In this document: piece after piece, positions 68 to 17,117 of the stretch | How positions within the stretch are numbered: the first letter of the stretch is position 1 | How the letters are laid out: each line of letters opens with the position of its first letter | Virus record (IMG/VR): IMGVR_UViG_2565956720_000007 | Location: 1-29,466 of that record | DNA from: a virus | Taxonomy: Duplodnaviria > Heunggongvirae > Uroviricota > Caudoviricetes | Direction: 5' to 3' (one strand) | Length of the DNA: 29,466 nucleotides | The notes under the pieces: generated by a model | Databases searched by the model: none | Told to the model about the DNA's origin: nothing | What the model saw: only the letters and a program-made list of their open reading frames with translations | Made by a program: the position numbers and the translations under genes

Positions 68-1048
68 TTGGAGTCATTACCGAACCGCAGTTTGCTCAAT
101 GACTTTAATAAATTAAAGAATCATTCCTTTGACAAAAATTGTATTTATAAATCGGTTTATAGACCGTTTAACAAATCAAATCTATATTTTAGCAGGGCGT
201 TAAACGATATGGTTTATCAAATGCCTCAGCTATTTCCAACAGCCGATTCTGATAACTTGGTTATTTATATTAACGGTAGTGGCAATGGTGGGAAACCGTT
301 CTCTGCATTAATAGTTAATGCAATTCCAGATTTGAATATGCAGCACTCAGGTGGGCAGGGGTTTCCTTTATATTATTATGAGAAATCTTCGAGTGATGAA
401 GTAGTTAAAGAATACAAAAGGAAAGAAGCAATTTCTGACGCAGGATTGTTTTATTTCAAAGACTTTTACTCAACTGAAAGCATAAGCAAAGAAGATGTTT
501 TCAATTATGTATACGGATTGCTTCATTCTGAAGATTATCGTGGACGTTATGCTGATAACCTTTCTAAGGAGTTACCGCGTATACCTTGTGTCAAAAAATA
601 TGACGACTTCGTGATTTTTTCTCAAGCTGGACGAGATTTAGCCTTTTGGCATTTGAATTTTGAAGAAGTCGAGCCATACAAAGCAACTATTGATTCTGGC
701 AACTTAAATTATTCTCAATTACCGAAAGAGGATTTTTATGTAGAGAAGATGAAGTTTGCTAAAAAGGCTGACAAAAGTACAGTCATCTATAAAAACAAAA
801 TACGGATAAAAAATATCCCATCTGAAGCCTATGATTACGTAGTAAATGGTAAACCTGCACTTGAATGGGTAATGGAACGACAGGGTGTTTTAACCCATAA
901 AGATAGCGGTATTGTTAATGATGCCAATGACTGGGCTATGGAAGCTATGGGAAATGCGAAATACCCATTGGAACTATTTCTAAGAGTTATCACTGTAAGC
1001 CTGGAAACTCAGAAGATAGTAAAAGGATTACCTAAACTCGATATATAA
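68..1048 (+). CDS. C-terminal domain fragment of a type ISP-like restriction-modification helicase/methylase family protein (possibly disrupted gene)
   Basis: 326-aa ORF from a TTG codon. Motif YVYGLLHSEDYRGRYADNLSKELPRIPCV matches my recollection of the conserved C-terminal target-recognition region of large helicase-methyltransferase (LlaGI/LlaBIII-like) proteins. Its frame is closed by stops at 44-46 and 50-52, while frame 1 is open from the window start to a TAA at 64-66, suggesting a frame break or truncated gene. Confidence 0.35.
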   Translation: MESLPNRSLLNDFNKLKNHSFDKNCIYKSVYRPFNKSNLYFSRALNDMVYQMPQLFPTADSDNLVIYINGSGNGGKPFSALIVNAIPDLNMQHSGGQGFPLYYYEKSSSDEVVKEYKRKEAISDAGLFYFKDFYSTESISKEDVFNYVYGLLHSEDYRGRYADNLSKELPRIPCVKKYDDFVIFSQAGRDLAFWHLNFEEVEPYKATIDSGNLNYSQLPKEDFYVEKMKFAKKADKSTVIYKNKIRIKNIPSEAYDYVVNGKPALEWVMERQGVLTHKDSGIVNDANDWAMEAMGNAKYPLELFLRVITVSLETQKIVKGLPKLDI

Positions 1049-2282: not shown

Positions 2283-3179
2283 CTATGACTTGCTGTTTTC
2301 AGTAAGAGTCTTATCATCCAAAGAATTTATTCTAGAAATTCTTTTTAACTCATTAAGATAATCAACCTCGTTTTCTAAGAACCAATGAAGAACTTTAGAA
2401 TTGCCAAGTAATTTATTAATATATGACTGGATTATAACGAATTTCAACATATCTGAACCATACTCGGTTTGAAGCTTTTTCGTTTCTTCCGAAGTTGTTG
2501 CCATTTCTTGTTCCAGACGAAGTATGGTTTTTTTTATGTCCTTTTTATAGGGAGTGTTTTTCCCTTTATTTACTATCATCGATGCCGGTGTTGCATCCAA
2601 GATGCTCATTGCAAATTTTTTACTATAATTATCAAAATTAATCATTGTACCGACTGCTTCAATTTGGCGAATTGGCTTCATTTTCCTCAAAACGTCAAAT
2701 GTAGCCTTAGGTATAGGTTTATCAGAAAGTTTCGCAATTACACTTGAATCTATGCCGTTCATCACATTCGCTTTATCTTTTATGGCATCAACAGATATGC
2801 CCAAAGCAGCACTAAGTTTTTCAATTGATACTTTTGCCAGAGACTTAATTATCATTCTATGTTCTTCAACTACATTTATATGATTCACTTGTTTGTTAGG
2901 AGTGAAAGCATCATCTATGCTCGAAAGTATACATGGAGCTTTTTCTATACCTAAGTCTTTTAAAGCCTCAACCCTTAAATGGCCATCAAGTATCTTAGTG
3001 ACATCTTTATCTTTGTCATAGAATACTATTATTGGTTCAATAATACCTAAGCTTTCGATAGAGGTAACTATATGATGATATTTATGGCTTCGCTTTACGT
3101 TTTCTAATAATTCCTTAGATGGAATTAACTTATTAGTTTCCAGGTAAATAAAATTATCGCCAAAACGTATCTGAATCAT
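2283..3179 (-). CDS. ParB/Srx-superfamily (ParB-like, KorB/RepB-like) protein, paralog 2
   Basis: 298-aa ORF; N-terminal region ILDGHLRVEALKDLG resembles the ParB-box arginine-containing motif; start overlaps stop of upstream ParB-like gene (3176-3179). AT-rich. Confidence 0.6.
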   Translation of the reverse strand: MIQIRFGDNFIYLETNKLIPSKELLENVKRSHKYHHIVTSIESLGIIEPIIVFYDKDKDVTKILDGHLRVEALKDLGIEKAPCILSSIDDAFTPNKQVNHINVVEEHRMIIKSLAKVSIEKLSAALGISVDAIKDKANVMNGIDSSVIAKLSDKPIPKATFDVLRKMKPIRQIEAVGTMINFDNYSKKFAMSILDATPASMIVNKGKNTPYKKDIKKTILRLEQEMATTSEETKKLQTEYGSDMLKFVIIQSYINKLLGNSKVLHWFLENEVDYLNELKRISRINSLDDKTLTENSKS

Positions 3180-4072
3180 TTTAATACCTCTTTGTTTACT
3201 GGGGTTAATATCTGAGATGGTAGTTCTGAAAGATTCTCTTGTTCAAGTATATGTTGAAAGCTTTTATTCATCATTATGATGTTAAAAATCTCATTTACTA
3301 TTAGTAGGTTGGTTTTTATGAATTTTGAGTTGTTATAAACAGATTTATGTTCAGCGATACTATTTTCATAAAGCTCAATCAACTCCTCTGCAGTCATCCT
3401 TTTTGATGGTTTGTGATAATAAAATCCGGCTGCTTTTGCACCTTTATTCCCAACTGTTCTTTGATTTAGAATGTGTTTTATCTTTATAATGTCCCGACTT
3501 TTTATTAATTTTTTATCATATGCTTCGGTAAGAATATCTTGTGCTTCCTCAGTTTCACATCTTGCAAATTGCACTGCGAGATACAGAGGCAAATTACCCC
3601 GTTCGACTGCTGAGAGAAGTTTATGCTCTCCCTTATCAAGTAGCATATTAATACTGCTCACCCAGTTCGATGAATATCCAGTAATCTCACTTATTTCGGA
3701 GTCTGAAAGTCCTCTGATTTTCATGTCTTTAATCACCTGTAATAACTCATTAGAACGTGGTCTTCTCCTTGCAATGTTTTCAACTAAACTCATAACGTAA
3801 GCATCTTCTTCTGATACATCTCTTATAATTGCTGGAATAATAGTTTCACCTAATGCAACGAGAGCCTCTATTCTCCCTTGACCACAAATTAAAGCATATT
3901 TGAAATCGCCTTCATCAATAGCTCTTACGCTTATAGGCTTGCTTAATCCTCTTTTTTTTATGCTTTCCTTTATTTCTTCATGCACTACCTTATTTCTTGT
4001 TCGTGGGTTAAGAAATTTTATTTTTGCAATCTCAATTTGAATTATTGGGAATTCATTTTTTTCAGGCAGCAT
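3176..4072 (-). CDS. ParB/Srx-superfamily (ParB-like) protein with HTH, paralog 1
   Basis: 298-aa ORF; ParB N-terminal motifs GQGRIEALVALG and SLVENIARRRPRSNELLQ followed by a helix-turn-helix-like segment; 11-nt overlap with recombinase gene stop, so translationally coupled operon. Confidence 0.65.
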   Translation of the reverse strand: MLPEKNEFPIIQIEIAKIKFLNPRTRNKVVHEEIKESIKKRGLSKPISVRAIDEGDFKYALICGQGRIEALVALGETIIPAIIRDVSEEDAYVMSLVENIARRRPRSNELLQVIKDMKIRGLSDSEISEITGYSSNWVSSINMLLDKGEHKLLSAVERGNLPLYLAVQFARCETEEAQDILTEAYDKKLIKSRDIIKIKHILNQRTVGNKGAKAAGFYYHKPSKRMTAEELIELYENSIAEHKSVYNNSKFIKTNLLIVNEIFNIIMMNKSFQHILEQENLSELPSQILTPVNKEVLK

Positions 4073-5618
4073 ATAGTTCCCTCACTTTCATGCGAGTAAT
4101 AATTTGTAGAAGTTTATCAAGATTATCAAATCTATAGAGATCTAATCGAATGTTGTTTGTTTCCGTCATGCACATTTTATTATATTCGTTTTCAATCTTT
4201 GGTATGATATAAAAATCAAGAGGTGAAATATTTTGTGAATTCATTCGTATAACAATTGTTATGTCTGCTTTCTGTGAGTTATCAAACCGGACTTTCCATC
4301 TAAGTTTACCTGATTTCATATGTATGCATTTAGTAACAAGGACGGAAATTAAAAACTCATCATTGATGTAAAGCATTGGGGCATATTTATACTCGTCTAT
4401 ATGACAGTTGCTTTTTAAAATTTCACCCTTAAAATCCTCAATTATCTCTGAGTAAAATGATCTTAGTGCTTCATTTATTTTGAGATAGCTGTAATCATGT
4501 TCTGGCTTATAACCAATCAAAGTATATGCTCTTAAAAGACCACCAAATCGGGTTCTATAAACAGAAGATGAAGGGCCTGTATCATCTTCATCAATGATAA
4601 AGCCTGATAGTTTTCCATTAGATTCTAATTTTTGTTTTAGTTTTTCTAATAGATCTTCATTAGTCAAATGAATGGATCGGAGCTGAATTATTTCTTGAGC
4701 TTTATTGTATTTTTTCTTTGAAATAATAGGTTTATATGCCTTGTCACATCTAACCCATTCATGTTTGGGGTTTTTTACAAGCCTACTTTTTAATTTAGAT
4801 GAGGTTTTGTTATATATGTTGTTTCCAATATATTTTTCATTTGTCAAAATTTGATGTATTTTTGCACGAGTCCATAATGTACCATTTTCTGCAGGTATGT
4901 TCTGTTCATTTAATCTCTCAGCAATAATGAATTCTGGGACGTTATTATCTATAAAGAGATCATATATTCTATTTACAATTTTTATTTCATTTTTTGGTCC
5001 CGGAATTAATATTACCCTATCTGTTTGAATACTCTTTCTTTTGCGGAAACTCAATATTTCTTTAGCTATGCCATTTTCGTCTACTAAAAGACGTCTCAGC
5101 CCATAACCAGCCATACCGCCTTGATGATAACCAAGCTTTATTAAATTTACTTGCCCTATAAATACCTTTTCAGATAGATTCCTGCTGTGATATGCAGCAC
5201 TAGATCTTTTTATATTCAGTATAACAGAGGACTCTAAAGGGAAATCTTTAGTGGGTATAGGTTCGGAACAATATATAAGATCTACACCATTTCTCTCAAA
5301 TAGAAAGGAATAATATGCCGCTTCATCACTATTTTGAAAACGACCAAAACGGCTCACATCATAAAATAATACAGCCTGTATATCTATTTTCTTTTGTTCT
5401 ACATCGCTAAGTAACTGCTGCAAAGAATGCCTGCCTACGATACTGACTCCGCTCTTACCTGAATCATCGTAGGTATAAGCGATTTCCATATTGTTCTTTT
5501 CAGCATAATCTTTGATATATTCGGACTGATTATGTAAAGAATATTGCTGATGGTCGGTAGACATCCTCAAGTACTGCGCGACCCTAACTCTATGATTTTT
5601 GTCATTTTCGCTAGCCAT
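4062..5618 (-). CDS. Large serine recombinase (resolvase/invertase catalytic domain plus recombinase domain)
   Basis: 518-aa ORF; N-terminal catalytic motif VAQYLRMSTDHQQYSLHNQ (Y-x-R-x-S...Q of serine recombinases); recombinase-domain-like middle region; first gene of a three-gene minus-strand operon. Confidence 0.8.
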   Translation of the reverse strand: MASENDKNHRVRVAQYLRMSTDHQQYSLHNQSEYIKDYAEKNNMEIAYTYDDSGKSGVSIVGRHSLQQLLSDVEQKKIDIQAVLFYDVSRFGRFQNSDEAAYYSFLFERNGVDLIYCSEPIPTKDFPLESSVILNIKRSSAAYHSRNLSEKVFIGQVNLIKLGYHQGGMAGYGLRRLLVDENGIAKEILSFRKRKSIQTDRVILIPGPKNEIKIVNRIYDLFIDNNVPEFIIAERLNEQNIPAENGTLWTRAKIHQILTNEKYIGNNIYNKTSSKLKSRLVKNPKHEWVRCDKAYKPIISKKKYNKAQEIIQLRSIHLTNEDLLEKLKQKLESNGKLSGFIIDEDDTGPSSSVYRTRFGGLLRAYTLIGYKPEHDYSYLKINEALRSFYSEIIEDFKGEILKSNCHIDEYKYAPMLYINDEFLISVLVTKCIHMKSGKLRWKVRFDNSQKADITIVIRMNSQNISPLDFYIIPKIENEYNKMCMTETNNIRLDLYRFDNLDKLLQIITRMKVRELYAA

Positions 5619-5788
5619 GCACGAAACCTCATGGATGATTCAATACAATGTAGTGGATAAAATTGATCAAATTTTAACCGAATTCAACTGTTTTATCATT
5701 GATTAGAGCGAATTTGGTAGATCTTCGAGGTGTATGATAATCGAGAAGAGATGTGAATTATTTAGCTGATATGACCGACAGCTTTCGT

Positions 5789-5838
5789 TATGTGGACTCA
5801 ATGTCCCCATTTGTAAATGGCTATGCTTAGTCCACATA
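5789..5838. repeat. Composite palindrome (outer 10-bp arms tatgtggact/agtccacata and inner 14-bp palindrome ccatttgtaaatgg sharing one centre) in the region upstream of the recombinase operon
   Basis: Read directly from sequence; both dyads are centred between 5813 and 5814; located between the integrase stop (5901) and the recombinase start (5618). Confidence 0.6.
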
Positions 5839-5900
5839 GGTTAATGGTGTGATTATTAATTCTTTAACTAAATCAAGATAGTTAATCCATCATGGGAGAG

Positions 5901-7130
5901 TTATGCGGCAATAACTTTGCATTTTTGAGACGAAACATAGTCACTCCACCATTGCATGAGAACCACCCGTTCAGTGAGATACTCTGCACGATTGTAGGCT
6001 GCAATTATTTCATCTTTCTTCGAGTGGGCAAGGGCGGCTTCTAAGACATCAGTCCTAAACTTGCCAGACTCCTCAGCAGCCGTTCTAGCAATGGATCGCA
6101 TACCGTGAGCTACAAGCTCACCTCCGAAACCCATACGGATTATGGCCGCATTAGCTGTTTGTTCATGCATGTGATTGAGTGGAGCTTTGATACTGGGGAA
6201 CACCCACTCTCTATGCCCGCTGATGACTTTCATTAAATCCAAAACTCGCAAAGCTTCTTTGCTCAGTGGAACTTTGTGAGGCTTCTTCATTTTCATAAAC
6301 TCCGCCGGGATGTTCCACATGCCAGTTTCAATATCAATATCTGACCATCTTGTGCGAACAGCTTCACCTGGGCGAACCCATGTGAGAAGTTGCCACTCAA
6401 TCAGTAGCCTTGTTTCCAAACGGATAGAAGCATTGTTTAGAGCAACCAAGAAGCGAGGGAGTTCGGAAGGGGGTAATGCTGGCATATTCTGTTTTTTTGG
6501 CTTGCTGAACCGTTGCCCCAGGTTGTCTGCCGGGTTGAATTCTATGAGTTCTTCTGTTGCTGCATAGCGGAAAATTTCATTCAGGCGGGATATGATGCGG
6601 CGAAGTGTTTCAAGGACACCTCGTTTTTCTATGGGTTCTAAATGCTGTTTAAGCATTTTAGGGCGAATCTCCTTAATTGGGGTATCACCCAATGTGGAAA
6701 AGATATTTCTCTCTAGGCTTCGCCAGATGTCGTTAGCATGATCTTGGGAGATGCCTGACGTTTTGACTTTCTCATCAAGCCACTTCTTGGCTACTGCTTG
6801 AAATGTATGTTCCGTGGCATCTTTCAGTGCATTGGCTTTTTGGTTGTTATGAACTTGGGGGTCTATACCATTTGTAAGCAACGACAAGTATTCATCACGT
6901 AAAGCTCGTGCCTTCGCAAGTGTAAGGTGAGGATAGGTTCCTAAGCTCACCTTAGTTCGCTTTTTGGTCACAGGCACTGCATATCTGAAATACCAATTTT
7001 TCTTCCCTCCCTTCGCCAGGGGAGCGATTCGCAACAGCAAACCATCGCCGTCAAAAAGGTTAACCTCTTTTTCGGCAGGTTTGGTGCTTTTGATTTCAGT
7101 GTCAGTGAGCTTCTTAGCGATTTTGGCCAT
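5901..7130 (-). CDS. P4-family tyrosine integrase (CP4-57 IntA-like)
   Basis: Start placed at internal ATG 7128-7130 giving the typical N-terminus MAKIAKKLTDTEIKSTKPAEKEVNLFDGDGLLLRI (arm-binding domain of P4-type integrases); C-terminal catalytic region with conserved R..HxxR..Y context. The longer ORF to 7211 is probably N-terminal overextension. Confidence 0.85.
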   Translation of the reverse strand: MAKIAKKLTDTEIKSTKPAEKEVNLFDGDGLLLRIAPLAKGGKKNWYFRYAVPVTKKRTKVSLGTYPHLTLAKARALRDEYLSLLTNGIDPQVHNNQKANALKDATEHTFQAVAKKWLDEKVKTSGISQDHANDIWRSLERNIFSTLGDTPIKEIRPKMLKQHLEPIEKRGVLETLRRIISRLNEIFRYAATEELIEFNPADNLGQRFSKPKKQNMPALPPSELPRFLVALNNASIRLETRLLIEWQLLTWVRPGEAVRTRWSDIDIETGMWNIPAEFMKMKKPHKVPLSKEALRVLDLMKVISGHREWVFPSIKAPLNHMHEQTANAAIIRMGFGGELVAHGMRSIARTAAEESGKFRTDVLEAALAHSKKDEIIAAYNRAEYLTERVVLMQWWSDYVSSQKCKVIAA

Positions 7131-7228
7131 GTTTGGGACCCTCGATTTTAGGACCCATCTTCGTGGGTCCCATTCAGGGTGCCATAACTCGTAGTTCTCA
7201 GCAATTCTCACTAGACTACAATAGACGT

Positions 7229-7260
7229 AAAAAAGCCCGCAGAGCTTGTGCTGTGCGGGC
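7229..7260 (-). terminator. Rho-independent terminator downstream of the ssrA 3' fragment (minus strand)
   Basis: Hairpin gcccgcagagc-ttgt-gctgtgcgggc (one mismatch) followed on the minus strand by a run of six T (plus-strand aaaaaa at 7229-7234). Confidence 0.6.
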
Positions 7261-7296
7261 TTAGTAGACTTTACTGAACTTCAGTACATCAATATT

Positions 7297-7341
7297 TGGT
7301 GGAGCTGGCGGGAGTTGAACCCGCGTCCGAAATTCCTACAT
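7297..7341 (-). other. ssrA: 45-nt copy of the 3' end of tmRNA gene ssrA (attachment-site core; not a complete ssrA)
   Basis: Minus-strand sequence ATGTAGGAATTTCGGACGCGGGTTCAACTCCCGCCAGCTCCACCA matches the recalled E. coli ssrA 3' terminus exactly; similarity stops abruptly at 7342, so only the att core is present. Confidence 0.8.
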
Positions 7342-7458
7342 ACCATTTTTACACTAACGAAATCATATTTTTTCATTCTAAATCATGATGTTAGTGTTAA
7401 TCTGTGTTTGCTTGTTTTACTTGTTTTTAGTGCTCTGCCGCCAAAGTGCCGCCATTTA

Positions 7459-8484
7459 TTAGCGATGCCAGTTGAGGTTATGAAGTGGATTTTTGGTAAC
7501 GGCATCTTCCAGATGATCCGGTGCAAAATGGGCATAAATCATGGTCATTTTAATATCAGCGTGCCCTAAAATATCCCTCAATACTAAAATGTTTCCGCCG
7601 TTCATCATAAAGTGGCTGGCGAAAGTGTGGCGCAGAACGTGGGTACATTGACCTTCAGGTAGTTCAATTCCAGCTCGTTTTACCGCACGCTCAAAAGCCT
7701 TTCGGCATGGTGTGAATAACTTTCCTCTGTTTTTGGGTAATTCTTCATACAGTTCCTGAGAAATAGGAACAGTTCGGTTTTTCTTTCCTTTTGTTTTGGT
7801 ATAGGTAATTCGATACTTTGATATCTGGTTACCTTGCAGGTTTTCGGCTTCGCTCCATCTTGCCCCGGTTGCCAGACAAATCTTGGCAATCATTAGCAGA
7901 CTGGGACTTTGAGATTCAGCACAAGCGTCAAGCAGGCGTTTGATTTCATCAGCAGCAAGGAACGCCAGTTCACCCTCTGCAATTTTGAAAGTTGGCAGAC
8001 CGGCGAGAGGGTTGGGTGCAGACCAATGTCCCAGCTTTTTCAGTGTGCCAAAAACTGAGGATAGGTTACGTTGTTCAAGGTTCACCGTTCTGGGCTTAAC
8101 TGGTGACATGAGCACACCATCTTCGTTTTTGACCTCACCTTTTAATCTGGCTTCCCGGTATTTTGTGAAATCACCTGCTGTCAATTCAGAAGCGATGGGA
8201 TCGCCAAGCCCATTACAAATGATTTTTAACTTAGCCATTAATCGCTTAGGGTCAGCGAGTGTCTGACCGTACAGGGAATACCATTGCTCAATCACTTCTG
8301 ACAGTTGTCTCCGATCTTCCTTTTCTCCCAGCCAAGGTTTCTTGTTTACCTCGTCCATGGTGAAATTCTCAAACGCAATGGCTTCGCCTTTCGTCGCAAA
8401 TTGTTTGCGTACGCGTTTGCCATCTCGCCCGTTTGGGTAGCATTCACATAACCACTTTCCGTTCGGCTGTTTTCTGATGGTCAT
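7459..8484 (-). CDS. int: P2/186-type phage tyrosine integrase
   Basis: 341 aa; strong similarity to recalled P2 Int, e.g. ATGARWSEAENL and HVLRHTFASHFMMNGGNILVLRDILGHADIKMTMIYAHFAP catalytic region. Confidence 0.9.
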   Translation of the reverse strand: MTIRKQPNGKWLCECYPNGRDGKRVRKQFATKGEAIAFENFTMDEVNKKPWLGEKEDRRQLSEVIEQWYSLYGQTLADPKRLMAKLKIICNGLGDPIASELTAGDFTKYREARLKGEVKNEDGVLMSPVKPRTVNLEQRNLSSVFGTLKKLGHWSAPNPLAGLPTFKIAEGELAFLAADEIKRLLDACAESQSPSLLMIAKICLATGARWSEAENLQGNQISKYRITYTKTKGKKNRTVPISQELYEELPKNRGKLFTPCRKAFERAVKRAGIELPEGQCTHVLRHTFASHFMMNGGNILVLRDILGHADIKMTMIYAHFAPDHLEDAVTKNPLHNLNWHR

Positions 8485-8485
8485 A

Positions 8486-9118
8486 TCAAAGGCTCTTAAT
8501 GATTTTCAGTGCGCGGCCTATTACCTTAATGTCATCCAGTTCGCACTCAAACGATGAATCATCCTGATGCACTACTAATCTGTTTCCCGGGAGTCGTGTC
8601 AATTTTACAATGCTTTTTATCCCGTCGATGTCCACTAACCACGTACCATTTACTGGTGGTGTTTGGTTGCGATCTATTAAATAAGAATCACCAGAAGTAG
8701 TCACCAGCAGCAGGTTGCTTGAGTCTGAGGGGAGTATGCTGCTATCAATGATTGCTTTTCCAGCATCGACCAATAAACCACCGTTGAGAGTTGCCTTTTC
8801 AATTTCAGGAGATACAAGCTCAGAAAGAGGTTTAACCTTGCTGGGGTTCACGGAATTGATATTTTTTTTAGGGTCAATGTTTGAACCTGGCTCGCCCTGT
8901 CCGGTGGTTAGCCATAGTAAAGAAACTCCTGTTTCCAAGGCGCACTGAATCACCCATTCTGCGGGAAAGCTATCTCTTAAGTATCTGTTTGCCATAGTGC
9001 TTTTTGATGCACCTAAGTGATCGCAAAGTTGCTGTCTGGACTTGAAATCATAGGCTGCCATTAGTCTATGGATAGCCTCTCTTCCCCCTGTATTCTCGCC
9101 AGCTTTTACCTGTATCAT
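8486..9118 (-). CDS. cI: 186-type CI-like prophage repressor (HTH N-terminal domain)
   Basis: 210 aa; HTH-like segment LGASKSTMANRYLR and CALETGVSLLWLTTGQGE; located directly upstream of and co-oriented with int, divergent from apl-like gene, as in phage 186. Confidence 0.7.
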   Translation of the reverse strand: MIQVKAGENTGGREAIHRLMAAYDFKSRQQLCDHLGASKSTMANRYLRDSFPAEWVIQCALETGVSLLWLTTGQGEPGSNIDPKKNINSVNPSKVKPLSELVSPEIEKATLNGGLLVDAGKAIIDSSILPSDSSNLLLVTTSGDSYLIDRNQTPPVNGTWLVDIDGIKSIVKLTRLPGNRLVVHQDDSSFECELDDIKVIGRALKIIKSL

Positions 9119-11319: not shown

Positions 11320-11618
11320 CAAGGGCAGTGCGTATCCATCAATTAAAAATTGCACCTAAGTATTTCAACGCTGTGGTTGCAGGTCAAAAGACGGCTGAAC
11401 TTCGTAAAGACGATCGTGGCTATAAAGTTGGTGATGTTCTTTCTCTTTGCGAATGGAAGCATGGCGTATTTACGGGTAGGGAATGGGCCGCTGTTATCTC
11501 TCATGTGTTTCCGGTTAATGACGTCATGGCAGTTTCAGAACAATGGGTGATGCTATCAATTCGCCCATTAACCCCATTAGAAGCTTTAGGATATGTTATT
11601 GCCGGAGGTGCTGTATGA
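11316..11618 (+). CDS. Small ASCH/DUF3850-like domain protein
   Basis: 100 aa from ATG 11316 with ggagg RBS; [36 protein letters not shown] resembles ASCH-like small phage proteins; flanked by identical 16-nt junctions (see findings). Confidence 0.5.
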
Positions 11619-12472
11619 GCACCATCCTGAAATGGGCGGGAAATAAAACCGCCATTATGCCAGAACTGAAAAAACACCTTCCAGCTGGCCCGCGACTGGT
11701 TGAACCTTTCGCGGGTTCCTGTGCGGTGATGATGGAGACGGATTATCCAAGCTATCTGGTTGCGGATATTAATCCTGATTTAATCAACCTCTATAAAAAG
11801 GTTGCCGCTGATTGTGAATCGTTTATATCTCGCGCCAGAGTTTTATTTGAGATCGCAAACAGGGAGGTAGCTTATTACAACATAAGGCAGGAGTTTAATT
11901 ACTCAACTGAAATTACTGATTTCATGAAAGCGGTATATTTCCTGTATCTCAATCGTCACGGTTACCGTGGTTTATGTCGCTATAACAAGAGCGGGCATTT
12001 CAATATTCCCTACGGTAATTATAAAAATCCGTATTTCCCTGAAAAAGAAATTCGCGCATTTGCAGAAAAAGCCCAGCGGGCAACGTTTATCTGCGCCAGC
12101 TTTGATGAAACGCTGGCGATGTTGAAGGCGGGGGATGTGGTGTATTGCGATCCGCCTTATGACGGTACGTTTTCCGGCTATCACACTGATGGTTTCACTG
12201 AAGATGACCAGTATCACCTGGCATCCGTTCTTGAACATCGATCATCAGAAGGTCATCCAGTCATTGTTTCTAACAGTGACACATCCCTGATTCGTTCGCT
12301 GTATCGCAATTTTACTCACCACTATATCAAGGTAAAACGCAGCATCGGTGTGGCAGCTGGCGAGTGTAAATCAGCAACAGAAATCATCGCTGTTTCCGGG
12401 CCGCGCTGCTGGGTGGGATTTGATCCTTCGCGTGGCGTGGATAGTTCTGCCGTGTACGGAGTGCGTGCATGA
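11615..12472 (+). CDS. Dam-family DNA N6-adenine methyltransferase
   Basis: Motifs KWAGNK near N-terminus and DPPY catalytic motif; start ATG 11615 with ggagg RBS, overlapping upstream stop (ATGA). Confidence 0.85.
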
Positions 12473-14883
12473 GCCATGCTGATATGAACAACTGCAGCGG
12501 CTTTAACGAGGTCGCAGCAGCATTCTCATGGAGCAGCCCGAAAAAGGCCATTAACCCTTATCTGGACCCGGCGGAAGTTGCGCCGGTTTCTGCGCTTTCA
12601 AACCTGATCACTCTGTACGCTGCCGATAACGAGCAGGAACAGCTGCGCCGTGAGGCGCTGAGTGATCAGGTCTGGGAGCGTTATTTCTTTAATGAATCCC
12701 GTGATCCTGTCCAGCGCGAAATCGAGCAGGATAAGCTCATTAGTCGGGCAAAGCTGGCGCATGAGCAGCAGCGTTTTAATCCGGATATGGTCATTCTGGC
12801 GGACGTCAACGCCCAGCCTTCCCATATCAGCAAGCCGCTGATGCAACGTATTGAATACTTCAGCAGTCTGGGCAGGCCAAAGGCTTATTCCCGCTATTTG
12901 CGTGAGACGATTAAGCCATGTCTGGAACGACTGGAGCATGTACGCGAGAGTCAGCTATCCACTTCTTTTCGCTTTATGGCAAGCCATGAAGGGCTGGACG
13001 GCCTGCTGATCCTGCCTGAAATGAGTCAGGATCAGGTGAAGCGCCTGTCTACCCTTGTTGCCGCGCATATGAGCATGTGCCTTGATGCAGCTTGTGGTGA
13101 TTTGTATGCCACCGATGACGTTAAGCCAGAAGAAATCCGCAAGACATGGGAAAAGGTGGCAGCGGAAACCCTGCGTCTGGATGTAATCCCTCCTGCGTTT
13201 GAGCAACTCCGTCGGAAAAGAAACCGCCGTAAACCCGTGCCCTATGAACTCATTCCGGGTTCGCTGGCGCGTATGTTGTGCGCCGACTGGTGGTATCGGA
13301 AATTATGGAAGATGCGTTGCGAATGGCGGGAAGAGCAGTTGCGTGCTGTCTGCCTGGTCAGCAAAAAAGCATCTCCCTATGTCAGCTATGAAGCCGTGAT
13401 GCATAAACGTGAGCAGCGCCGTAAGTCGCTGGAGTTTTTCCGTTCTCATGAACTGGTGAACGAAGACGGCGACACGCTGGACATGGAGGATGTGGTAAAC
13501 GCCAGCAGCAGCAACCCGGCGCATCGCCGCAATGAGATGATGGCCTGTGTTAAAGGTCTGGAGCTTATCGCGGAAATGCGCGGTGACTGCGCCGTTTTCT
13601 ACACCATCACCTGTCCGTCACGTTTCCATTCCACGCTCAATAACGGCAGACCAAACCCGACCTGGACAAACGCGACGGTAAGACAAAGCAGCGATTATCT
13701 GGTCGGCATGTTTGCTGCATTTCGTAAGGCGATGCACAAAGCCGGGTTGCGCTGGTATGGCGTGCGGGTGGCTGAGCCGCATCATGACGGCACAGTTCAC
13801 TGGCACCTGTTGTGTTTCATGCGCAAAAAAGACCGCCGTGCCATCACTGCATTACTGCGTAAGTTTGCCATCCGTGAAGACCGCGAGGAGCTGGGCAATA
13901 ACACTGGGCCGCGCTTTAAGTCTGAGTTGATTAACCCGCGCAAAGGAACGCCAACAAGCTACGTCGCGAAATACATCAGTAAGAACATTGACGGGCGTGG
14001 TCTGGCTGGCGAGATCAGCAAGGAAACGGGGAAATCCCTGCGTGATAATGCTGAATACGTTAATGCCTGGGCGTCTCTGCATCGTGTTCAGCAATTCCGC
14101 TTCTTTGGCATTCCGGGGCGTCAGGCTTACCGTGAACTGCGATTGCTGGCTGGTCAGGCGGCAAGGCAACAGGGGGACAAAAAAGCAGGTGCGCCGGTAC
14201 TGGATAACCCACGCCTTGATGCCATCCTGGCTGCTGCTGATGCTGGTTGTTTTGCCACCTACATCATGAAGCAGGGCGGCGTACTGGTTCCCCGCAAATA
14301 TCACCTCATCAGAACCGCTTATGAAATCAACGAAGAGCCGACCGCCTATGGCGATCACGGCATTCGTATCTATGGCATCTGGTCACCTATTGCAGAGGGC
14401 AAGATCTGCACTCATGCCGTGAAGTGGAAAATGGTTCGTAAGGCCGTTGATGTTCAGGAGGCGGCAGCCGACCAGGGCGCTTGCGCCCCTTGGACTCGTG
14501 GCAATAACTGTCCCCTTGCTGAAAATTTGTACCAACAAGGGAAAGACAAATCAGCTGATGGAGATACCAGAACGGATATCACCCGCATGGATGACAAGGA
14601 GTTGCACGATTACCTGCACAGTATGAGCAAAAAAGAGCGCCGGGAACTGGCAGCAAGGTTACGCCTGGTGAAACCGAAACGGCGTAAAGACTACAAACAG
14701 CGAATTACAGACCATCAGCGACTGCAGCTCGTGTATGAACTGAAGTCCAGGGGATTTGATGGCAGCGAGAAAGAGGTCGATTTACTGCTTCGCGGCGGCA
14801 GTATTCCGTCAGGAGCAGGCCTGCGTATCTTCTATCGGAACCAGCGTTTGCAGGAAGATGATAAGTGGCGAAACCTGTATTAA
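12469..14883 (+). CDS. A: P2 gpA-like rolling-circle replication initiation protein
   Basis: 804 aa; HUH-type motif HWHLLCF and catalytic tyrosine motif YVAKYISK typical of P2 A/phiX174 A family. Confidence 0.85.
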
Positions 14884-15035: not shown

Positions 15036-15224
15036 ATGCAGGACTATTTTTTGGAGTCTTTGAAGCTCCAGCGCATTGATTTTTTTCTTAAGCTTGTAGC
15101 GGCTAGTGAGTGTAGTGATGAAGAGAAGGGGCTGGCCCTGCAGTGGGTTTCTGAACTGACAGATGAACTCATGGCAAAAATCAGAACCCACGAATACAAC
15201 CGCTCAATGGATGTCATCAGCTGA
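15036..15224 (+). CDS. Small protein, possible N-terminal part of a Tum-like SOS-inducible antirepressor
   Basis: 62 aa, strong RBS aggagg 6 nt upstream of ATG; downstream of LexA box; overlaps the frame carrying the DinI-like ORF. Confidence 0.5.
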   Translation: MQDYFLESLKLQRIDFFLKLVAASECSDEEKGLALQWVSELTDELMAKIRTHEYNRSMDVIS

Positions 15225-15234
15225 GGTGACTTTT

Positions 15235-15468
15235 ATGCGCATTGAAATAATGATCGATAAAGAGCAGAAGATTAGCCAGTCTACACTGGACGCCCTTGAA
15301 TCCGAGCTTTACCGCAATCTGCGCCCCCTGTATCCCAAAACGGTAATTCGTATCCGCAAAGGTAGCTCTAACGGTGTGGAACTGACCGGACTGCAACTGG
15401 ACGAAGAAAGAAAACAAGTGATGAAAATTATGCAGAAGGTGTGGGAAGACGACAGCTGGCTGCATTAA
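15235..15468 (+). CDS. DinI-family protein (DinI-like domain as in 186 Tum C-terminus)
   Basis: 77 aa from ATG 15235; MRIEIMIDK...IRIRKGSSNGVELTGL...VMKIMQKVWEDDSWL matches recalled DinI (MRIEVTI...ETWESADDWF). Confidence 0.7.
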   Translation: MRIEIMIDKEQKISQSTLDALESELYRNLRPLYPKTVIRIRKGSSNGVELTGLQLDEERKQVMKIMQKVWEDDSWLH

Positions 15469-15603
15469 GAAACGTTGCTGGCGTCTGAACTTGTTTCTGG
15501 CGTCAGCAAGGTTGAACAACGAGCCCTTGCGAGGCGTTAGCTCTGTAGTGCATGTCTATGCCGCATGAGATCGCATGATCGTTTGAGGATCGTTTTTGCT
15601 AAG

Positions 15604-15630
15604 GCCCGCCAGGAGTGGCGGGATTTTGCT
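15604..15630 (+). terminator. Candidate rho-independent terminator
   Basis: 6-bp GC stem cccgcc/ggcggg with 6-nt loop followed by attttgctt. Confidence 0.35.
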
Positions 15631-15673
15631 TATGTCATGCAGGCGCATGAAAACCGCTACATAAAGCGGGCAG

Positions 15674-15692
15674 GCGTGGCGGGGATACGAGC
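15674..15692 (+). other. Candidate cos site (P2/186-type cohesive end)
   Basis: ggcgtggcggggatacgag: first 13 nt identical to the recalled 186 cohesive end GGCGTGGCGGGGAAAGCAT (P2: GGCGAGGCGGGGAAAGCAC); lies between the A/tum region and the portal side as expected for a prophage. Confidence 0.5.
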
Positions 15693-15804
15693 GCGCGCTA
15701 TGTGGTATAGGCCTTAATTTAGTATGATTCAAGAGTGTCGGGATCTTTGCGCTGATCAGTCCTAAGTTATATGATAAGAAAAATGCATAAAAAAGGTTCG
15801 GTTC

Positions 15805-16779
15805 ATGGGGTTAGGATTAAAAGACGCTATTGTGCATACCGCTGCGTTTCATCAAAAGGAAACTAATGAATTGCAATTGCCAAACAACCATTGGCATCCT
15901 GGTTTTATCACTGTCTTAGCAGCTTACGTGAATCATCACAAAATTACCGAAGATAACTGCGTTTTGTCATGCCCTGACTATATGCGAGCTATCAATTTAC
16001 ATGGTGCTTTATGGGGCGAGGATCAGTATCAACAGGAACGTGTAAATGTTGGAAGAAATTACAGTTTGGTTACAGCATTAACCAATGTTGAAGCTGTTGA
16101 CGTTGCCACTGGTAGTATTAACAGTTGTGTAAGGCAGTTAACATTCCCTGATCGTGATCCGAGAGATTATCCCAAGGGACTTACAGATCTAACTCATGTT
16201 ATAGGTGAGCTTCACGATAACGTTTGGTCGCATGGAAAATCAACGGGTTTTTCTTTTGCACAACGTTCGGCTGTACCCCACACACAAAGAAAAGAGCACT
16301 ATTTAGAATTTTCTTTGGCGGACTGTGGGTTAGGATTTCTCCGAGAATTGCGGCGAGCTGGTATACCCGGAATTGAGACTCACCAGGATGCGATCGCATG
16401 GTGTATTCAAGAGGGACATTCATCTAAGCATGCTGATTTGCAGGATGATTGGGCACAGCAACTTCCCCAGGATTTTATTGGGGGTAGTATGTTTGGTCAC
16501 GGGGTTTCGGTCAAAGAAAAAGATAATAATCATCAAGGGCTTGGGTTATATCACTTGATGAAATTGATAAAAACATATAATGGGGAATTGCAACTGGCTT
16601 CAGGAAATGTATGCTTAGAAGCAATAGGTGATGAAGTGAGCTATACTGAATTACGTACTAAATGGCCGGGTGTAGCAATTTCTTGCCGTTTTAAGATTCA
16701 TGAACTGGCAGTCGATAAAGATAGCGAAGAAAATGACCCTCAGCTTATGGAAATAATGCGGGCGTTAGGAGGAGAGTAA
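15805..16779 (+). CDS. GHKL-superfamily (histidine-kinase-like) ATPase with uncharacterised N-terminal domain; accessory gene, candidate defence/partner-switching kinase
   Basis: 324 aa; N-box-like ELHDNVWSHG, G1 box DCGLGF, G2 box GHG...QGLGLYHL in correct order and spacing for a HATPase_c fold; about 125 N-terminal residues of no recognisable family; lower GC than flanking phage genes. Confidence 0.6.
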   Translation: MGLGLKDAIVHTAAFHQKETNELQLPNNHWHPGFITVLAAYVNHHKITEDNCVLSCPDYMRAINLHGALWGEDQYQQERVNVGRNYSLVTALTNVEAVDVATGSINSCVRQLTFPDRDPRDYPKGLTDLTHVIGELHDNVWSHGKSTGFSFAQRSAVPHTQRKEHYLEFSLADCGLGFLRELRRAGIPGIETHQDAIAWCIQEGHSSKHADLQDDWAQQLPQDFIGGSMFGHGVSVKEKDNNHQGLGLYHLMKLIKTYNGELQLASGNVCLEAIGDEVSYTELRTKWPGVAISCRFKIHELAVDKDSEENDPQLMEIMRALGGE

Positions 16780-17117
16780 TGAACAAAATCGCATACAAGT
16801 TACCCGAGGGTGACCTGGCTTCGCGCAATCAGGCTATCCCCCAACGACACAAGATTGAAGGGTTCATTAAAGAAGGGTATACCGTAGATTTGGACCTGAG
16901 CGGTGTTTATTCAATTTCAGAATCATACTCTGATGAAATCTTTGGTGTTTTGGTAGTGAAATTCGGTGTAACCAAAGTTTTGAGTCAGGTTAAGGTTCGC
17001 AATGCATCCCCTTCAATTTTAAAAAGTATTGCAAAAGTGATCCAACGTCGTAGCAATGAAGTAGCATCAAAAAAGGTTCATTCCGTTGGATTTGATGGTT
17101 TATACGCCGTTTGTTAA
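16779..17117 (+). CDS. STAS-like (DUF4325-like, anti-sigma-antagonist-like) small protein, partner of the GHKL ATPase
   Basis: 112 aa; start overlaps upstream stop (TAATG); VDLDLSGVYSISESYSDEIFGVLVVKFG resembles the STAS-like DUF4325 signature as I recall it. Confidence 0.5.
   Translation: MNKIAYKLPEGDLASRNQAIPQRHKIEGFIKEGYTVDLDLSGVYSISESYSDEIFGVLVVKFGVTKVLSQVKVRNASPSILKSIAKVIQRRSNEVASKKVHSVGFDGLYAVC

Follow-up and report, generated by a model that had tools for sequence, protein, structure and literature searches.

What does a serine recombinase do in an operon with two ParB-like proteins and no ParA ATPase to partner them? The question is raised by IMG/VR virus record IMGVR_UViG_2565956720_000007, whose positions 1 to 29,466 (29,466 nucleotides, hereafter the window) were analysed here. 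A first-pass annotation of this DNA had placed three overlapping minus-strand genes at 2283–5618, and open reading frames (ORFs) lie exactly there. The hidden Markov model search that it proposed returned Resolvase and Recombinase for the protein of 518 amino acids (aa), and ParB_N and RepB for both of the 298-aa proteins:

4062–5618, minus strand: serine recombinase, 518 aa (Pfam Resolvase 9e-22, Recombinase 6e-22)
3176–4072, minus strand: ParB-A, the upstream ParB, 298 aa (Pfam ParB_N 1.6e-13, RepB 8.5e-8)
2283–3179, minus strand: ParB-B, the downstream ParB, 298 aa (Pfam RepB 6e-24, ParB_N 1.5e-5)

The ParB_N match of ParB-B falls just under the Pfam cut-off. The stop of the recombinase gene overlaps the start of ParB-A by 11 nt (ATGCTGCCTGA), and ParB-A overlaps ParB-B by 4 nt (ATGA). 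As will be seen, this trio is one conserved operon across several bacterial phyla. Our preferred reading, to which we tentatively give a probability of about 0.45, is that it is a recombination module of mobile elements, in which the ParB pair would mark sites and control the recombinase.

Is the grouping peculiar to this DNA? In a scan of species-representative genomes (one genome per species) we found at least 594 relatives of the recombinase and kept 80 loci, of which 69 hold the full trio, eight are cut by a contig end and three are decayed. The trio is complete, and in the same order (recombinase, ParB-A, ParB-B), in 69 of the 72 assessable loci (96%), with a median ParB-A/ParB-B junction that is again a 4-nt overlap. 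Its hosts include Alpha-, Beta- and Gammaproteobacteria, Acidobacteria, Planctomycetes, Bdellovibrionota and Myxococcota. The full trio is also present in 47 of 50 distant IMG/VR loci; the survey of co-occurrence suggested at first pass has thus found the combination to be fixed. The recombinase family comprises 1,351 clusters (50% identity) at E<1e-30, with alignments that run full-length and include the C-terminal region, and in the loci inspected the homologues of ParB-A (39–70% identity) are flanked by a recombinase of the family and a homologue of ParB-B. Geobacter sulfurreducens, Salmonella, Klebsiella aerogenes, Serratia and Morganella all contain the trio, as does plasmid At (pAt) of Agrobacterium fabrum C58, and on a Piscinibacter plasmid it stands directly 3′ of the Tn7-like transposition genes tnsA/tnsB/tniB/tniQ. 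The Xenorhabdus trio has a ParB-B truncated by an insertion sequence (IS) element; in Dickeya, ParB-A and ParB-B are called, with a gap of about 2 kb upstream that has no called recombinase gene. We found no description of the trio in the full-text literature, a search that mostly did not cover subscription journals, so that an earlier description is possible. In a survey of Stx2l-producing Escherichia coli O8, Stx2l prophages are inserted at this ‘parB’ locus, and the recombinase is listed under accession WP_000135615 (PMC9227347).

How is the trio distributed within E. coli? The window is itself E. coli DNA, from the integration hotspot at ssrA, the gene for transfer-messenger RNA (tmRNA). 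Among 5,426 complete E. coli genomes, 695 carry the trio, in 702 copies that are all chromosomal, none lying on a plasmid. The copy number is nearly always one, and no genome has the trio in more than two places. An identical trio is found in the E. coli B derivative NEBExpress (L094, NZ_CP053599.1 1803691–1808538), in which the whole island consists of the integrase, the trio and IS1. A variant of 94–95% identity has a tyrosine-integrase pseudogene nearby, with an IS3 element between, and different cargo. The ratio of non-synonymous to synonymous substitution rates (dN/dS), taken between the two E. coli variants, is lowest in ParB-B (0.05), with 0.07 in ParB-A and 0.11 in the recombinase. Values of 0.05–0.11 denote strong purifying selection, and therefore all three genes are kept by selection. 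A plasmid origin of the trio was considered and rejected: no DNA match was found in PLSDB, and the plasmid-borne relatives detected at the protein level are complete trios, not ParAB operons.

What kind of recombinase heads the operon? The catalytic motif YLRMSTDHQ, singled out at first pass, is present at residues 16–24. Residues Y16, R18, S20, D87, R90 and R93, among others, are invariant in 40 diverse homologues, and the protein has the serine nucleophile and the conserved arginine and aspartate residues of a resolvase catalytic domain. The recombinase domain (PF07508, 6e-22) comes after the long helix E, occupies residues 210–312 and aligns to that of the SPbeta integrase. A confident AlphaFold2 model (predicted local distance difference test, pLDDT, 86.8) matches the SPbeta, Bxb1 and phiC31 integrases over some 300–330 residues, comprising the N-terminal and recombinase domains only; the top structural matches are 9dxd (SPbeta), 9iu2 (Bxb1) and phiC31 chains. 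Past residue 320 no PDB sequence-profile match was obtained, and a search for a zinc ribbon or coiled coil gave no PF13408 match, no Cys4 motif and no paired cysteines. The designation ‘large serine recombinase’ therefore holds for the catalytic and recombinase domains, but the zinc-ribbon/coiled-coil domain of canonical integrases is missing.

What of the C-terminal domain? Modelled alone, residues 372–518 or thereabouts (pLDDT 88.8; predicted template-modelling score, pTM, 0.82) match proteins of the PD-(D/E)XK fold, including restriction and homing endonucleases, at moderate TM-scores of 0.36–0.45. Weaker matches (Foldseek E 0.007–0.06) are the N-terminal domain of Eco15I, chains of the SPARDA complex and PvuII. 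Residues W441, D452, R458, N463 and D468 are conserved in this domain, and no conserved (D/E)xK lysine was found in it. The model suggests a restriction-endonuclease-like domain, which may cut DNA or only bind it. Some relatives are tandem double recombinases, with two Resolvase and Recombinase units in one polypeptide (P0241, P0242; 1,057 aa).

Do the two ParB-like proteins retain the motifs that bind cytidine triphosphate (CTP)? In ParB-A the boxes are intact (box I NPR, box II CGQGR, box III VENIARR, for which the family has VENxARR), and 29 orthologues have no substitution at N22, R24, G64, G66, R67, E98, N99 or R102. Its architecture is ParB_N followed by a helix-turn-helix (HTH)/RepB-type C-terminal region, and sequence matches in PDB to Spo0J, ParB, Noc and KorB run through the HTH region. 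ParB-B keeps the GxxR box (LLDGHLR) but the ENxxR box is missing. It has conserved motifs of its own (FTYNK, QEH and RKMKPxRQIE), its RepB-type C-terminal region is conserved, and its family profile matches Noc at 7e-11. The inspection of CTP-binding motifs recommended at first pass thus gave GxxR and ENxxR for ParB-A, and only the former for ParB-B; the combination of a ParB CTP domain with an HTH is complete in ParB-A and partial in ParB-B.

How are the two related? Pairwise BLASTP aligns them at 30% identity over 63 aa; alignment of the family profiles by hhalign is full-length (probability 97%, E 5e-11, 18% identity). They are paralogues, as had been proposed, though their split is ancient, and ParB-B is a degenerate paralogue of ParB-A. 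The architecture that they share, C-terminal region included, would fit a heteromeric pair. We also looked at proteins that might join recombinase and ParB as evidence of an interaction. P0294 and P0372, with RepB-domain tails, resemble deletion fusions of decayed loci; P0330 and similar candidates have no ParB similarity.

Is there a ParA? No KGGxGK[ST] motif occurs in any window ORF of at least 120 aa, in agreement with the earlier remark that no ParA/Walker ATPase partner is present, and none was found in the complete islands or neighbouring genes of the relatives inspected. The score against the RepB equivalog TIGR03454 is 35.6 bits, the cut-off being 201.5, and there is no RepA or RepC nearby. 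With no ParA or RepA and with NCBIfam equivalog scores far under cut-off, the trio is no standard partition module, whether ParABS or repABC, as the first-pass annotation had held. Two findings would have spoken against that annotation, a ParA just outside the window and membership of a known integrative-element module; the complete islands lack ParA and the trio matches no described module among those that we tested. A search near the operon for parS-like centromere repeats, limited by the divergence of the loci, found no conserved palindrome.

Does the trio depend on the integrase that lies beside it in the window?

5901–7211, minus strand: P4-type tyrosine integrase of the ssrA island (Pfam Arm-DNA-bind_3, Phage_int_M, Phage_integrase; NCBIfam PRK09692, 444 bits)

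Such an integrase adjoins the trio in enterobacteria only, and integrase domains are not a common neighbour family elsewhere. The earlier suggestion of a recombination function independent of this integrase is supported by the recurrence of the trio without one in Geobacter, in Salmonella, on pAt and in the Tn7-like element; most of the 80 species-representative loci are also without one. The P4-type integrase is the trio's neighbour and stands outside the conserved module. The nearest neighbours are in fact highly variable: the 135 downstream ORFs represent 96 Pfam families, and the 139 upstream ORFs represent 74. They are of the mobile or defence type: type I and type ISP restriction-modification, N6/N4 methylases, DUF499 and SNF2 helicases, and also PIN, WYL, AbiE, Fic, TniQ, ArdA and VgrG.

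Where in these elements does the trio lie? It tends toward their edges. In E. coli and K. aerogenes it is directly beside the P4-type integrase, in two opposite arrangements; the ParB pair of Dickeya has such an integrase within two genes, and in Morganella an integrase-like gene (faint Pfam match only) is one gene away. The Geobacter trio is at an island edge, adjoining core genes, and the Piscinibacter trio has tniQ as its immediate upstream neighbour. In 31 of 50 IMG/VR contigs the trio lies no more than 3.4 kb from the predicted provirus end and points inward. Phage tail genes, for a J-like protein of 1,300 aa and a tail-fibre-like protein, are convergent with the trio in 14 loci, 0.4–4.7 kb past ParB-B; the trio thus has the usual position of the integrase in a siphovirus-type prophage. 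At the protein level, homologues of the trio occur in 162 PLSDB records, 109 of them Pseudomonas plasmids.

On what sites might the recombinase act? Two palindromes, at 1608–1627 and 5789–5838, had been put forward as targets of the recombinase or the ParB-like proteins. Both exist, the second with 24-nt arms that are 75% complementary, in the following region:

5619–5900 (282 bp), no strand: intergenic region from the integrase stop to the recombinase start, with the presumed trio promoter and palindrome 5789–5838

This region is 88% identical in nucleotides to a variant copy (L093), and a promoter scan of it gave a single minus-strand match (5699–5671), of a quality that chance alone would give. 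As sites neither palindrome survived comparison. That at 5789–5838 has decayed in an E. coli copy of 94.6% identity, with no compensating changes, and other enterobacterial loci do not have it upstream of their recombinase; that at 1608–1627 belongs to a segment that many E. coli copies lack. No consistent terminal inverted or direct repeats surround the trio in four alphaproteobacterial loci and the window, no terminal overlaps were found when short contigs were searched for circularity, and repeat and RNA-motif searches of the trio loci gave no attachment (att) sites. Two candidates for an ‘empty site’ junction in E. coli proved to be an IS1 deletion and unrelated restriction-modification cargo. 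No sites, junction or empty locus were found, so that the recombination reaction, be it integration/excision, resolution or cassette capture, is an inferred one.

How, then, might the module work? We envisage a self-contained site-specific recombination module that would move among genomic islands, prophage-like regions, large plasmids and Tn7-like transposons. The recombinase would be its DNA cutting and rejoining enzyme. ParB-A and ParB-B would most likely form a heteromeric DNA-clamping complex that recognizes and nucleates at a site of the element, bridges or marks the DNA and licenses the recombinase, and so would supply site choice, synapsis and control of directionality. For other serine recombinases these come from accessory proteins or from the enzyme's own C-terminal domain; canonical serine integrases read att sites and set direction via the zinc-ribbon/coiled-coil domain, and architectural or directionality cofactors are often needed. 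This recombinase has lost the usual att-reading domain and has the restriction-endonuclease-like one where it would stand. The result would be that the element bearing the trio is integrated/excised or resolved, not partitioned by a ParA, and in the E. coli ssrA island the trio would add a second such module to the P4-type integrase. In favour of this reading are the fixed gene order with its translational coupling, the invariant catalytic residues, the integrase matches confined to the N-terminal and recombinase domains, the PD-(D/E)XK-like C-terminal domain, the CTP boxes of the ParB pair, the lack of ParA, the variable flanks of mobile or defence type, the positions near element edges and the low dN/dS; what we infer beyond these observations is the formation of a complex, the recognition of sites by the ParB pair and the reaction.

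Several points weigh against such a module. No recombination site, junction or empty site came to light, nor a clean presence/absence pair in E. coli, where the trio is single-copy and always beside a tyrosine integrase that could explain the mobility of the island alone. Provirus boundary callers use integrase-like genes, so the edge positions in IMG/VR are possibly in part circular. The only recombinase–ParB ‘fusion’ proteins look like decayed loci and lend no support to an interaction. The PD-(D/E)XK-like domain could also mean a nuclease activity of a different logic.

A more elaborate version, which we regard as unlikely in its full form, makes the trio a new class of site-specific recombination system, with a CTP-gated heteromeric ParB clamp that selects and synapses sites for a serine recombinase whose zinc-ribbon/coiled-coil domain has been exchanged for a restriction-endonuclease-like one, the whole being a portable integration or cassette-capture platform of islands, prophages, plasmids and transposons, which in alphaproteobacteria would act jointly with a dedicated 109-nt RNA. 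What is this RNA? A structured element of that length lies 0–150 nt past the ParB-B stop in alphaproteobacterial trios, for example at:

L069:11398–11506, minus strand: 109-nt element
L030:4730–4838, minus strand: 109-nt element
L099:6744–6852, minus strand: 109-nt element

Our model of it, R1, has 41 matches in genome loci and 80 in metagenome contigs; 76 of the metagenome copies have sufficient sequence upstream, and of these 66 lie directly 3′ of ParB-B. Of its 26 base pairs, 14 have compensatory changes, and pairing holds in 98% of cells. The strand on which its G-U pairs occur is the coding one, and for this reason it is probably an RNA. It matches no Rfam family, and R1 has no match in the window or in any E. 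coli locus. Its candidacy as an attachment site was rejected: after a search for partial duplicates a second copy was present in one locus only (L016), several ‘orphan’ copies keep a 3′ remnant of ParB-B, and in prophage-like loci the motif lies inside the element, with the trio on one side and the tail genes on the other. The one duplicated locus, in Ruegeria conchae, has two copies of the RNA-motif region (11340–11540 and 16374–16554), which form a direct repeat some 190 bp long and enclose a 5-kb segment that codes for a PIN-domain protein and for a protein of 1,162 aa with no known function. This layout, the single example found, resembles a cassette inserted by site-specific recombination.

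A second accompaniment is a small, divergently transcribed, weakly HTH-like gene (about 90–135 aa) directly upstream of the recombinase in 49 loci, with the conserved N-terminal peptide MSFPKKGKFFP:

L030:844–1230, minus strand: HTH-like gene
L011:4967–5374, minus strand: HTH-like gene
L003:8106–8366, minus strand: HTH-like gene

It has no equivalent in E. coli, where only 282 bp separate integrase and recombinase. A conserved DNA ‘site’ between this gene and the recombinase was discarded as a candidate, being largely the coding sequence of that N-terminal peptide. On one metagenome contig (L100:1640–1806) the start of the HTH-like gene and the RNA motif are about 35 nt apart and enclose neither recombinase nor ParB genes, an arrangement that looks like precise removal of the trio or a trio never inserted.

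Could the trio serve instead to maintain the element that carries it? The recombinase would then resolve multimers or tandem arrays, and the ParB pair would condense or position the element or silence its transcription, as KorB or VirB do, with no dedicated ParA; the element would be stabilized instead of moved. We think this improbable, although a good deal fits it: the homologues on large plasmids (pAt and the PLSDB records), the one trio that stands just behind transposition genes of the Tn7-like kind (resolvases are carried by related families of transposons), the resemblance of the ParB-A sequence to Spo0J, Noc and KorB, and the single copy of the module per replicon. On the other hand, every one of the 702 E. 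coli copies is chromosomal, in an integrated island with no obvious need for resolution or partition, and no parS-like repeats were found. The plasmids that bear the trio have partition systems of their own, such as repABC on pAt.

Less probable still is a role in defence or conflict between elements: the ParB pair would load onto DNA that comes in, and the recombinase, equipped with an endonuclease-like domain, would damage or rearrange this DNA. Type I and type ISP restriction-modification, AbiE, Fic, DUF499, SNF2/NOV_C helicases, PIN and WYL are frequent neighbours, the C-terminal domain is similar to endonucleases of the restriction and homing kinds and to one chain of SPARDA, a defence complex, and the distribution is patchy and horizontally spread under strong purifying selection. 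Yet any backbone gene of an island would be expected near defence genes. No trio protein matched a system-specific model of PADLOC-DB 2.0, the canonical (D/E)xK lysine is not conserved, and the fully conserved serine-recombinase active site argues for conservative recombination, not degradation.

A regulatory switch, in which the recombinase inverts or deletes a nearby segment that controls adjacent cargo, restriction-modification genes for instance, and the ParBs are accessory or architectural, as Fis is for Hin and Gin, seems to us very unlikely. Restriction-modification genes are indeed frequent neighbours, and serine recombinases commonly need architectural cofactors. But the neighbours on both sides differ between loci, no conserved inverted repeats flank a segment, and in E. 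coli B the module persists without any cargo. Finally, chance adjacency of a recombinase and decayed plasmid ParB fragments, with ParA outside the window, can be dismissed as next to impossible, given intact trios in 96% of assessable loci across phyla, complete islands without ParA, dN/dS of 0.05–0.11 and no plasmid DNA match.

Does the trio resemble any system already described? Each of its proteins belongs to a known superfamily. With the serine integrases that have a separate directionality factor (phiC31-gp3, Bxb1-gp47 and SPbeta SprA-SprB) the recombinase shares the N-terminal resolvase catalytic and recombinase domains, and both are found on mobile elements, often at the edges. The phiC31, Bxb1 and SPbeta enzymes rely on extra proteins encoded nearby, as the trio recombinase would. 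Unlike these, however, the trio recombinase has a PD-(D/E)XK-like C-terminal domain and no zinc-ribbon/coiled-coil domain, and its partners are two translationally coupled ParB-type proteins of about 300 aa, not a small unrelated directionality factor. ParB-A, with CTP motifs, an HTH, a C-terminal region and no ParA, is comparable to the ParA-less CTP-switch ParBs Noc, KorB and VirB; the trio ParBs differ from these in being a diverged paralogue pair, one without box III, that is always coupled to a recombinase. The RepB of repABC plasmids shares with both trio ParBs the Pfam RepB domain (PF07506); differences are the equivalog score under cut-off, the want of RepA and RepC nearby and the chromosomal location of the E. 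coli trio.

The best NCBIfam matches of the recombinase are CcrB (62.9 bits) and CcrC (42.6 bits) of the staphylococcal cassette chromosome (SCC), for which the cut-offs are 900. In the SCC ccr complex, as in the trio, a serine-recombinase complex stands beside variable, often defence, cargo at a fixed chromosomal site, and the Ruegeria cassette with its direct repeats of about 190 bp beside a trio is a further likeness. One article reports tandem mobilization of defence cassettes by Ccr (PMC11470126). SCC ccr differs from the trio in host phyla and in its accessory genes, which are cch or DUF927-type and not ParB-like. A precedent is the excision of the Anabaena fdxN element, for which the large serine recombinase XisF requires two accessory proteins of its own, XisH and XisI; these are small and not ParB-like, which sets them apart from the trio ParBs. 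In PADLOC-DB 2.0 there is no match for the recombinase or ParB-A, and the ParB_N region of ParB-B only weakly matches a type II methyltransferase model. The combination of a fixed operon, a recombinase without zinc ribbon, a PD-(D/E)XK-like domain and an intact plus a degenerate ParB is in no family that we tested.

What surrounds the trio in the window? The left 7.3 kb are 99–100% identical to many E. coli chromosomes, in which the gene order is ssrA, P4-type integrase, recombinase, ParB, ParB and decayed cargo. The AT-rich composition of the trio region noted at first pass is real: its GC content is 0.30–0.37, vs 0.55–0.61 in the right-hand part of the window. The other features are as follows:

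68–1048, plus strand: type ISP restriction-modification enzyme, C-terminal part (specificity domain), island cargo (Pfam Type_ISP_C 1.5e-89; PADLOC REase_MTase_IIG 1.9e-110)
1483–2282, no strand: non-coding island segment 3′ of ParB-B, common to some E. coli copies
about 7229–7441, minus strand: ssrA (tmRNA) 3′ fragment (partial Rfam tmRNA and IsrM matches)
7459–8484: P2-like prophage integrase
8486–9118: P2-like prophage CI repressor
12469–14883: P2-like prophage replication endonuclease; late genes are also in the prophage
15805–16779: ORF within a dip in GC content of the prophage
16779–17117: ORF within the same dip

In related genomes the type ISP gene is a remnant truncated or flanked by IS1, and some other copies of the island have a complete type I restriction-modification system in its place. 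The non-coding segment is no fixed part of the module, because the end-point of homology varies by genome (query positions 1, 275, 421, 457, 567, 750 and 785). It matches neither Rfam nor the alphaproteobacterial RNA model, and in some E. coli genomes the cargo boundary is 16–50 bp past the ParB-B stop. In E. coli relatives the P4-type integrase adjoins ssrA itself, of which the window has the 3′ fragment; in relatives without the prophage the complete ssrA occupies this position. The P2-like prophage, which continues toward the right end of the window, shares the ssrA site with the island, and this tandem integration left the ssrA 3′ fragment between the two integrase genes. The fragment is the remnant of an attachment site between island and prophage. 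In related genomes an anti-phage dCTP deaminase adjoins the prophage integrase. The dip in GC content (0.43–0.46 at 15163–17117) lies between the replication gene and the late genes, where P2-like phages often have defence cargo; PADLOC gave no convincing match for its ORFs.

What would follow if the trio is indeed a recombination module governed by its ParB pair? ParB-type CTP switches would then control a site-specific recombinase, a role beyond segregation, nucleoid occlusion and gene silencing. A large branch of the serine recombinases would have a different architecture for DNA recognition, which would bear on how genomic and defence islands move, and which may matter for genome-engineering tools, now drawn from integrases of the zinc-ribbon type.

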